From sequence record PP400785: a stretch of DNA of 64,000 nt. The stretch is one strand, 5' to 3'. How positions within the stretch are numbered: position 1 is the first letter of the stretch; each line of letters begins with the position of its first letter. The notes beneath the pieces were generated by a model, which did not search any database, was not told the DNA's origin, and worked only from the letters and a program-made list of their open reading frames with translations. A program made the position numbers and the translations under genes. The DNA is from Escherichia phage FL08. Shown here in pieces: positions 41,235 to 42,228 of the stretch.

Positions 41235-41278
41235 TTAGTACCTTATATAAATTATAATACATTTTATGAAGCTAATAA

Positions 41279-41626
41279 TTAATACGGTTTAGCATCAAAT
41301 TTTCTCTCAATTTCAGGCGTGAAATATAATTCTTTACCGCGTTTGGAAAAGCGACCAATAATATGATAATTATTCTCATCAAACGTGATATTACCAATAT
41401 CCATAGCTTTCAACCAAATATCGATATTTCTATCCAGCTTTATGTCAAAATTCCAATACGGAGAACTATTACCGAAAATACTGCAAGCGGATTCAGTGAA
41501 ACAGCTACTATAAATCTTGTCTTTAGGAACTACTAATTGATAGACACCTTTAATAAACTGAGGACCCTGCCACTTTGGCTGTTTCGCGTCTTTTTCTAAT
41601 AGAATAGGGTAATAATTAAAATTCAT
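41279..41626 (-). CDS. hypothetical protein encoded on an insertion between td and frd
   Basis: 115 aa from the ATG at 41626 (the ORF track starts at GTG 41638); no recognisable motif; sits where frd and td overlap in T4. Confidence 0.5.
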   Translation of the reverse strand: MNFNYYPILLEKDAKQPKWQGPQFIKGVYQLVVPKDKIYSSCFTESACSIFGNSSPYWNFDIKLDRNIDIWLKAMDIGNITFDENNYHIIGRFSKRGKELYFTPEIERKFDAKPY

Positions 41627-41646
41627 ATTTTCCGCCACGCGTTATT

Positions 41647-42228
41647 TCATTTATATACTGATTCCGTAAGGGTTGTTACTTCATCTATTTTATACCAATG
41701 TGTTTCAACCATTTCACGCTTGCTTATATCATCAAGAAAACTTGCGTCTAATTGAACCGTTGAATTAACACGATGCCTTTTAACAATGCGAGAAACAACT
41801 ACTTCATCCGCATAAGGTAACGCAGCATATAACAGAGAAGGTCCGCCAATTACACTTACTTTGGAATTCTGATCAAGCATAGTCTCGAATGGTGCATTAG
41901 GGCTTGACACTTGAATTTCGCCGCCAGAAATGTAAGTTATATATTGCTCCCAAGTAATATAGAAATGTGCTAAATCGCCGTCTTTAGTTACAGGATAATC
42001 ACGCGCAAGGTCACACACCACAATATGGCTACGACCAGGAAGTAATGTAGATAATGACTGGAACGTTTTAGCACCCATAATCATAATTGTACCTTCAGTA
42101 CGAGCTTTAAAATTCTGGAGGTCCTTTTTAACTCGTCCCCATGGTAAACCATCACCTAAACCGAATGCTAATTCATTAAATCCTTCGACCGTTTTAGTTG
42201 GAGAATAAGCGAATACCAATTTAATCAT
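41647..42228 (-). CDS. frd: dihydrofolate reductase
   Basis: 193 aa as in T4 Frd; ends ...SVYK followed by a vestigial ATG-AAA-TAA. Confidence 0.92.

Follow-up and report, generated by a model that had tools for sequence, protein, structure and literature searches.

In phage T4, the genes for dihydrofolate reductase (frd) and thymidylate synthase (td) share a 4-nt ATGA overlap with no open reading frame (ORF) between them, an arrangement in which td translation would rely on coupling to frd. In other T-even phages this slot is occupied, by a hypothetical protein in T2, T6 and the RB series and by ORF232, annotated between frd and td-A, in Yersinia phage PST. Other systems described in T4-type phages include the Seg and Mob free-standing homing endonucleases, as well as the PeSL/PmSL-associated shuffling of hyperplastic regions (Arbiol 2010, Comeau 2014; PMC2839356, PMC4122927). 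Here, the frd-td interval is analysed in a 64,000-nt stretch of Escherichia phage FL08 (record PP400785), the whole of which is called the window. Its frd and td genes are separated by a gene of 115 amino acids (aa), referred to as ORF-X or Xa, which is the same gene as in T2, T6, PST and the RB series, in the same slot and with nothing different. ORF-X is already known, as an unnamed hypothetical gene; no description of an ORF between frd and td was found in the literature. An original prediction, made from the sequence alone, took the interval for a precise insertion of a small gene cassette into a translationally coupled gene pair. The reading preferred here, at a probability of about 0.62, is that ORF-X is native to the frd-td interval of enterobacterial T4-like phages, and that an old array, frd-Xa-Xb-Y-td, has undergone differential loss in which T4 lost all three inner genes.

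Along the minus strand of the window, the gene order is frd, ORF-X and td, then nrdA.2, nrdA.1 and nrdA (ORF list and sequence). The features of the interval are as follows, with all coordinates being window positions.

41647..42228, minus strand: frd, dihydrofolate reductase, 193 aa, 98% identical to T4 Frd (ORF list, sequence)
41642..41653, minus strand: left direct-repeat copy, TAAATGAAATAA (repeat search, alignment with T4)
41649..41647, minus strand: frd stop codon, inside the left repeat copy
41650..41642, minus strand: two-codon mini-ORF ATG-AAA-TAA, its ATG overlapping the frd stop (sequence)
41627..41641, minus strand: non-coding 15-nt spacer from the mini-ORF to ORF-X
41636..41631, minus strand: weak Shine-Dalgarno (SD)-like GGCGGA upstream of ORF-X (sequence)
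41279..41626, minus strand: ORF-X (Xa), 115 aa, starting MNFNYYPILLEKDAKQPKWQGPQF..., a member of PHROG 1928 (sequence, profile match)
41235..41278, minus strand: AT-rich 44-nt spacer between ORF-X and td (sequence)
41275..41267, minus strand: Mot-box-like TTAGCTTCA in the ORF-X/td spacer (by eye)
41256..41251, minus strand: TATAAT in the ORF-X/td spacer (by eye)
41249..41243, minus strand: TATATAA in the ORF-X/td spacer (sequence)
41244..41241, minus strand: td SD AAGG, 6 nt upstream of the td start (sequence)
41226..41237, minus strand: right direct-repeat copy, TAAATGAAACAA, holding the td start codon (repeat search, alignment with T4)
40374..41234, minus strand: td, thymidylate synthase, 286 aa, uninterrupted (ORF list)

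The 3' end of frd, which is annotated as frd in matching phages, reads TAT AAA TGA, and td starts with ATG AAA CAA at 41234. Base-level alignment of the window and T2 with T4 gives one clean extra block of 416 bp, exactly at the frd/td overlap. The flanking genes are the same, the DNA is 94-97% identical up to the junction, and the ATG over the frd stop is kept. What differs is that this ATG opens only a two-codon ORF in the window, whereas td has a start with its own SD 416 bp away. Coupling of frd and td is lost in this T2-type allele, in which ORF-X has a weak SD and td a strong one. The descriptive part of the original prediction holds well: the frd end, mini-ORF, ORF, td start and AAGG were all found in place on the minus strand, the AAGG does supply a new SD for td, and T4 has nothing between its overlapping genes. 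The extra block is also where it had been placed, with its size revised from ~410 to 416 bp.

The window carries the majority, T2/T6-type allele of Tequatrovirus, and the T4 allele is rare. The 701-bp junction region has matches in 518 GenBank phage records, 354 of which cover all of it, and the ORF-X protein is at least 90% identical in ~362 GenBank phage records (100% in T2 and T6). The T4 overlap junction, represented by a spanning 64-mer, occurs in only 32 records, roughly half of them T4 itself or laboratory derivatives. A further gene, Y, is the sole slot occupant in ~135 T-even records and is at least 90% identical in 135 T-even records from Escherichia, Shigella and Yersinia. Together, the records with Xa (354-362), Y (135) or an empty junction (32) account for roughly the 518 that share the flanks, and the frd-td slot of close T-even relatives has three alleles: Xa, Y and empty. 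Scans of IMG/VR for junction patterns returned mostly chance matches in unrelated contigs, and dereplication of that collection precludes a tally. With these counts, the indel, repeat, ORF and SD behind the proposed cassette insertion stand, but a novel local event does not. The doubt that the ORF might lack conserved homologues is dispelled, and the ORF that the original prediction did not expect in T4 or its relatives is present in the relatives, though not in T4.

Annotation of the gene is sparse and uneven. The exact ORF-X protein is found on 341 contigs, where it is named 'hypothetical protein' every time, and in a partial T2 record (AY310907.2) the gene is present, unannotated. In APTC-EC-2A (OK274152.1), two 'dihydrofolate reductase' features lie under the matched stretch. 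The ORF-X match is in two pieces, also unannotated, in PQ249395.1 (Pu-Krd-SF1; 24526-24872) and its sister records, possibly because the gene is a frameshifted pseudogene or because of an error in sequencing.

ORF-X is a genuine conserved gene, far beyond chance, because the window and T2 versions differ by 15 synonymous and 0 nonsynonymous changes (proportion of synonymous differences, pS, 0.24). Across well-diverged T2-type pairs, the ratio of nonsynonymous to synonymous proportions (pN/pS) is at most 0.06, and the ORF list contains no competing ORF on the opposite strand of the ORF-X interval. Residues 4-111 align with positions 2-125 of the 126 in the phrog_1928 profile (E = 8.4e-36), a profile matched by all 38 aligned family members; the function of PHROG 1928 is given as unknown. 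The family is small, with 22 clusters in a profile search of 1.84 billion representative proteins, and two long matches among these (P0036 and P0038) were set aside as repetitive false positives.

The case for an old residence comes from other genera. Homologues of ORF-X at 24-66% identity occupy the frd-td slot in at least 6 of them, including Jiaodavirus, Kanagawavirus, Moonvirus and Marfavirus, and every family member whose context was examined sits between frd and td. In Mineola (Jiaodavirus), for example, the gene overlaps both frd and td. In Kanagawavirus, Marfavirus and Moonvirus (IME523, F48, CF1), the slot holds two tandem family genes, the second of which, Xb, is a paralogue of ORF-X with the common motifs D..QKKW, HG.Y and GRFxKRG....F. 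The two may work as a pair. Xb is present in 120 records from phages of Enterobacter, Klebsiella, Salmonella, Citrobacter, Yersinia, Serratia, Erwinia, Edwardsiella and others (at least 10 host genera), and among the matches listed its neighbour, where one shows, is frd or td. Xb has an insert of ~20 residues past the conserved Trp (L004:2317-2676, L006:2290-2643, L007:2287-2634).

A survey of 27 frd loci from viral contigs (given here as L and a number) extends this picture. Wherever Frd was 45-54% identical to that of the window, the surveyed lineage carried one or two genes of the family in its slot. These outgroup genes match the ORF-X family profile at E-values of 1e-24 to 1e-37, which contradicts the possibility that they are unrelated to ORF-X. 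The closest relatives outside Tequatrovirus (L049 and L050, 63-66% identical) overlap the frd 3' end and are followed by Xb, and one of the two starts at an ATG overlapping the frd stop. Across genera, identities are 71-82% for Td, 64-80% for NrdA, 44-54% for Frd, 24-66% for Xa and 68-81% for Y, a graded divergence that is consistent with long residence of the slot genes. The polarity assumed in the original prediction is probably reversed at depth, given that homologues fill the same slot in other genera, and the T4 allele would then represent a loss.

Gene Y, a 68-aa ORF (MSNKLKVKDVP...), was located at four of the loci:

L028:4079-4285, gene Y
L029:4082-4288, gene Y
L026:~890-1100, gene Y, frameshifted
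L049:4670-4879, gene Y

In L028 and L029, it overlaps both neighbours, with its ATG over the frd stop and its stop over the td ATG. The Y of Mosig-like phages shares 68-81% identity with a third ORF found directly upstream of td in distant genera (L049, L036, L048, L006, L042 and L039). Lineages with 64-86% Frd identity have either the T4-like overlap (L027, L030, L031-33) or Y (L028, L029). More distant Y homologues (~43% identity) are found in Escherichia and Klebsiella phages of ~150 kb, such as ukendt, Schickermooser and ZCKP1.

On the array reading, the ancestral frd-Xa-Xb-Y-td would have been translationally coupled throughout, every junction being a stop-overlapping ATG (ATGA or TAATG). 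Where two of these short homologies recombine, or slippage occurs between them, whole genes could be lost and a coupled junction restored each time. Trimming would have been lineage specific, with T2-type phages keeping Xa, the ~135 T-even records keeping Y only, and T4 and a few others keeping none. Loss of all slot genes in T4 would have produced the known ATGA overlap of frd and td, with the pair of TAAATGAAA motifs seen in the window as the presumed deletion substrate. The decay of Y in L026 points to loss that is still continuing, and an independent parallel exists upstream of frd, where the window carries three further genes:

42228-42473, minus strand: 81-aa ORF, between frd.1 and frd
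42485-42817, minus strand: DUF7247 protein, 110 aa, between frd.1 and frd
42828-43070, minus strand: frd.1 (DUF5417)

The DUF7247 gene follows directly after frd.1 in all six outgroup genera sampled. T4 has neither DUF7247 nor the 81-aa ORF, and T2 has the 81-aa ORF only. Around frd, T4 is therefore poor in genes on either side, with DUF7247, the 81-aa ORF and ORF-X all absent.

A number of observations weigh against the array reading. T4 is not placed inside the diversity of Xa-type phages: over 340 nt of flank, T4 and Xa phages differ at 14-16 positions and Xa phages differ among themselves at 3-19, distances that are uninformative on polarity. No phage with frd (ending VYK*) followed by Xa, Xb and Y was found in the Tequatrovirus/Mosigvirus group. 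Overlap junctions are present in further lineages with 57-84% Frd identity (L027, L030, L031-33, L063), and Xa is relatively closer to L049/L050 (63-66%) than is Frd (48%). The T2-type allele alone has uncoupled junctions, with spacers of 15 and 44 nt that include GC-rich filler (ACGCGT), and the 12 nt upstream of ORF-X resemble an L050-like region of frd tail and Xa start rather than a VYK*-ATGA junction. Finally, both ends of the T2-type allele repeat the T4-type junction TATATAA...TAAATGAAA[Y]AA, for which the joint chance is ~0.7-1%.

Those from the overlap junctions onward favour a history in which a T2-type ancestor had the T4-like overlap and gained an L049/L050-like Xa segment by illegitimate short-homology recombination at the junction. 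Some 13-16 nt of the junction would have been duplicated and ATG-AAA-TAA left behind as a decapitated td start, after which homologous recombination in the conserved flanks would have carried the allele to other T-even phages. This history is possible but less likely than the array reading. Alleles do demonstrably cross genera via flank recombination, as in L026, where the decayed Y came with a Mosig-like td 5' sequence. Nevertheless, such an insertion needs a gene that is native to this slot in other genera to land again in exactly the frd-td slot, a coincidence that would have to be repeated for gene Y and, upstream of frd, for DUF7247. The diversity of Xa among T2-type alleles (pS up to 0.27) is as deep as that of the flanks, the T4 flanks are not an outgroup, and no donor closer than 66% identity was found among 5.8 billion proteins.

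A direct repeat bounds the extra block. The repeat is TAAATGAAA, exact at 9 of 9 positions and extending to 12 nt with one mismatch (TAAATGAAA[T/C]AA); its copies, at 41653..41642 and 41237..41226, are spaced 416 nt apart. The duplicated ATGAAA of the original prediction is contained in it, as a part of the longer true repeat, and TATATAA does precede both copies as proposed. However, the flanking repeat is less remarkable than at first sight, because TAAATGAAA, which joins a TAA stop to ATG and AAA, is a motif of T-even gene junctions in general (10 copies in the window against 3.5 expected) and is mostly fixed by coding sequence, with 6-7 of the 9 bases in each copy dictated by frd or td. 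The chance of TATATAA in the td-proximal spacer is ~1% by its genome-wide density and ~8% given the AT-richness of the spacer.

The mini-ORF matches the td start at 8 of 9 positions (ATGAAA[T/C]AA) and had been read as a td remnant. That match stands, but ATG-AAA-TAA need not be such a remnant, because the ATG over the frd stop is kept in all related lineages as the coupled start of the next gene, td or Y. All three alleles of the close T-even relatives keep TAYAAATGA (Frd ...VYK* with the overlapping ATG). Descent of the mini-ORF from a td, Xa or Y start is compatible with the sequences in each case, and these are too short to choose among the three.

Upstream of ORF-X, GTGGCGGAAAAT aligns without gaps to ATGGTGAAAAAC upstream of the L050 homologue, with transitions only, an alignment that is short and statistically not firm. 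Reading the frd frame on past its stop gives N N A W R K I and then a TGA overlapping the ORF-X ATG (window 41631-41646). The last 12 nt of this read-on resemble the frd tail (..YGEKR*) of L049/L050, around position 4001. Short as it is, the stretch may preserve a trace of an frd whose C-terminus was formerly longer and coupled to ORF-X; in L009/L010, an indel interrupts this frame. The GTG at 41638 was considered as the start of ORF-X and rejected, since in L009/L010 the A-run that precedes the ATG has a 1-nt indel, which breaks the frame of the GTG.

The mini-ORF may also be viewed in terms of expression. Ribosomes leaving frd could restart at the overlapping AUG, make fMet-Lys, stop, and restart at the ORF-X AUG 15 nt further on. 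The six T2-type loci examined all have ATG-AAA-TAA intact, although substitutions and an indel occur close by. The same AUG is the working coupled start in all other alleles, and the SD of ORF-X is weak. Against this, the first 7 of the 9 bases are fixed by the frd C-terminus and stop codon, and six closely related sequences have little power. Such a relay is considered unlikely, and as it concerns expression only, it fits either history.

How the slot alleles move at present can be read from their flanks. Identity breakpoints lie inside frd (~nt 180-400) and td (from ~nt 150), not at the cassette edges. These breakpoints, and the Mosig-like td 5' sequence that the frameshifted Y of L026 brought along, show that the alleles, whatever their origin, are at present exchanged by ordinary homologous recombination. 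Autonomous mobility of the cassette was rejected on the same breakpoints. A transposon-like cassette was likewise rejected, as there is a direct repeat but no terminal inverted repeats and no transposase-like protein.

The group I intron of td was a further candidate. The window td has neither the intron nor I-TevI, while T4 td is split into 183 and 103 aa, and the intron is present in ~200-240 phage records. It occurs with all three junction alleles, in T4, in T6, G8, KarlGJung and PST (with ORF-X), and in EC121 and fPS-90. The idea that the empty junction hitch-hiked on td-intron/I-TevI homing was rejected, since the intron is found on all three backgrounds.

Homing endonucleases offer one comparison for a gene that comes and goes between conserved neighbours. 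ORF-X shares with the Seg and Mob enzymes a presence/absence polymorphism between close relatives, and the same T4 neighbourhood is rich in true homing endonucleases (SegG, I-TevI, MobE, I-TevIII). In two BASEL phages, FriedrichMiescher and KarlGJung, ORF-X is called a 'putative homing endonuclease' (MZ501066.1, bas39_0071; MZ501089.1), and the BASEL methods describe comparative, presence/absence-based calling. The protein itself does not resemble one. ORF-X has no Pfam, NCBIfam or PDB sequence match, in agreement with the absence of a nuclease motif in the original prediction, and no nuclease fold is found among the structural matches of its model. In the family alignment, no His, Asp or Glu suited to a GIY-YIG, HNH, LAGLIDADG or PD-(D/E)xK site is conserved. 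At 95-120 aa, family members are much smaller than Seg/Mob proteins, about half the size or less. The locus also differs, as there is no conversion-tract signature, the identity breakpoints are not centred on the cassette, and in distant genera the homologues keep a stable synteny and are coupled in translation. It is thus highly improbable that ORF-X is a free-standing homing endonuclease, or any other selfish gene that spreads into ORF-less junctions; the endonuclease identification was rejected for want of domain, fold and catalytic residues, and the BASEL label is unsupported.

A further comparison is with PeSL/PmSL-associated shuffling. In both cases, small ORFs of unknown function vary between very close relatives and short motifs lie at the indel borders. 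The ORF-X/td spacer is reminiscent of the PmSL description in its Mot-box-like GCTT and -10-like TATTAT/TATAAT, as judged by eye. However, these elements are defined by indel borders at which a stem-loop comes after the consensus of an early or middle promoter, and this pattern was not found at ORF-X: its borders showed neither a stem-loop nor a sigma-70-type -35/-10 pair. What is repeated at ORF-X is the stop/start coupling junction itself, and the slot lies inside a core nucleotide-metabolism operon, not in a hyperplastic region.

Other searches of the interval gave little. A sequence scan found no terminator and no sigma-70 consensus promoter in the spacers, folding showed no significant RNA structure there (z-scores 0.1 and 1.2), and the sole match to Rfam covariance models over the interval scored 21.8 bits against a gathering score of 50. 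By eye, TTAGCTTCA has one mismatch to the T4 MotA-box core TGCTT, with TATAAT 10 nt further and TATTAT overlapping (window 41251-41275). The ORF-X/td spacer is possibly a putative middle-mode promoter for td that is absent from T4.

What ORF-X does is approached here through its predicted fold. ORF-X has no match in Pfam, NCBIfam or PADLOC, none among PDB sequences below E 0.3, and the 38 family members give no consistent domain match. A defence or anti-defence label was dropped, as there is no PADLOC match. An AlphaFold 2 model built on the 38-sequence alignment reached a predicted local distance difference test (pLDDT) score of 90.6 and a predicted template modelling (pTM) score of 0.84; with a 4-sequence alignment, AlphaFold had given a pLDDT of 61.5. 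The elements of the model are beta1 (6-12), beta2 (27-34), beta3 (62-64), a helix (68-76), beta4 (80-96) and beta5 (99-104). The criteria for an OB fold were a barrel of five strands, a helix placed between strands 3 and 4, and significant structural similarity to known OB domains. The element order of the model is the same as that of OB folds (RPA, Cdc13, RecO N-terminal domain, HIN, S1), and no solved structural relative of the model was found. Structure prediction, which had been suggested as a check, has accordingly yielded a well-scored model but no solved counterpart. Invariant residues in the family alignment are Q16, W19, G27, G91, K95 and G97, and L9, Y29, R92, F93 and F102 are nearly so. 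In character the conserved set is aromatic and basic, and it includes no acidic residue or histidine.

ORF-X looks like a small OB-like beta-barrel in this model. With low confidence, the protein may be a non-enzymatic barrel that binds nucleic acid or a partner protein and is co-expressed with genes for deoxythymidine monophosphate (dTMP) and deoxynucleoside triphosphate (dNTP) synthesis. As T4 does without it, ORF-X is presumably not needed in laboratory conditions.

Downstream of td, the window also differs from T4. The td/nrdA.2 junction is an ATGA overlap in the window (40377-40374) and a 20-nt gap in T4. Between nrdA.2 (DUF5496, 87 aa) and nrdA.1 (DUF4326, 108 aa) the overlap is 47 nt, and between nrdA.1 and nrdA it is 10 nt (window 39834-40377).

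In summary, the frd/td overlap of T4 is a minority, gene-poor allele that is atypical among T-even phages. Because of this, genes that are in fact common will be mistaken for insertions where T4 serves as the reference. Such indels are routine to specialists in T-even genomics and nothing about them is surprising in itself; the locus is a clear example of how stop/start overlap junctions permit modular gene gain and loss inside operons. There is also corrective value in setting aside the misleading 'putative homing endonuclease' annotation of ORF-X. PHROG 1928 emerges as a small, strongly constrained family that most T4-like phages of enterobacteria carry beside their genes for dihydrofolate reductase and thymidylate synthase. 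More speculatively, and at long odds, PHROG 1928 might be a structurally new OB-like class linked to this gene pair across enterobacterial T4-like phages, acting as a hitherto unrecognised part or regulator of the phage machinery for deoxynucleotide synthesis, or as an associated factor that binds nucleic acid, with the gene lost from T4 and ATGA junctions perhaps serving as preferred break-and-join points. If this is true, its loss from the model phage T4 would explain why PHROG 1928 has never been studied.

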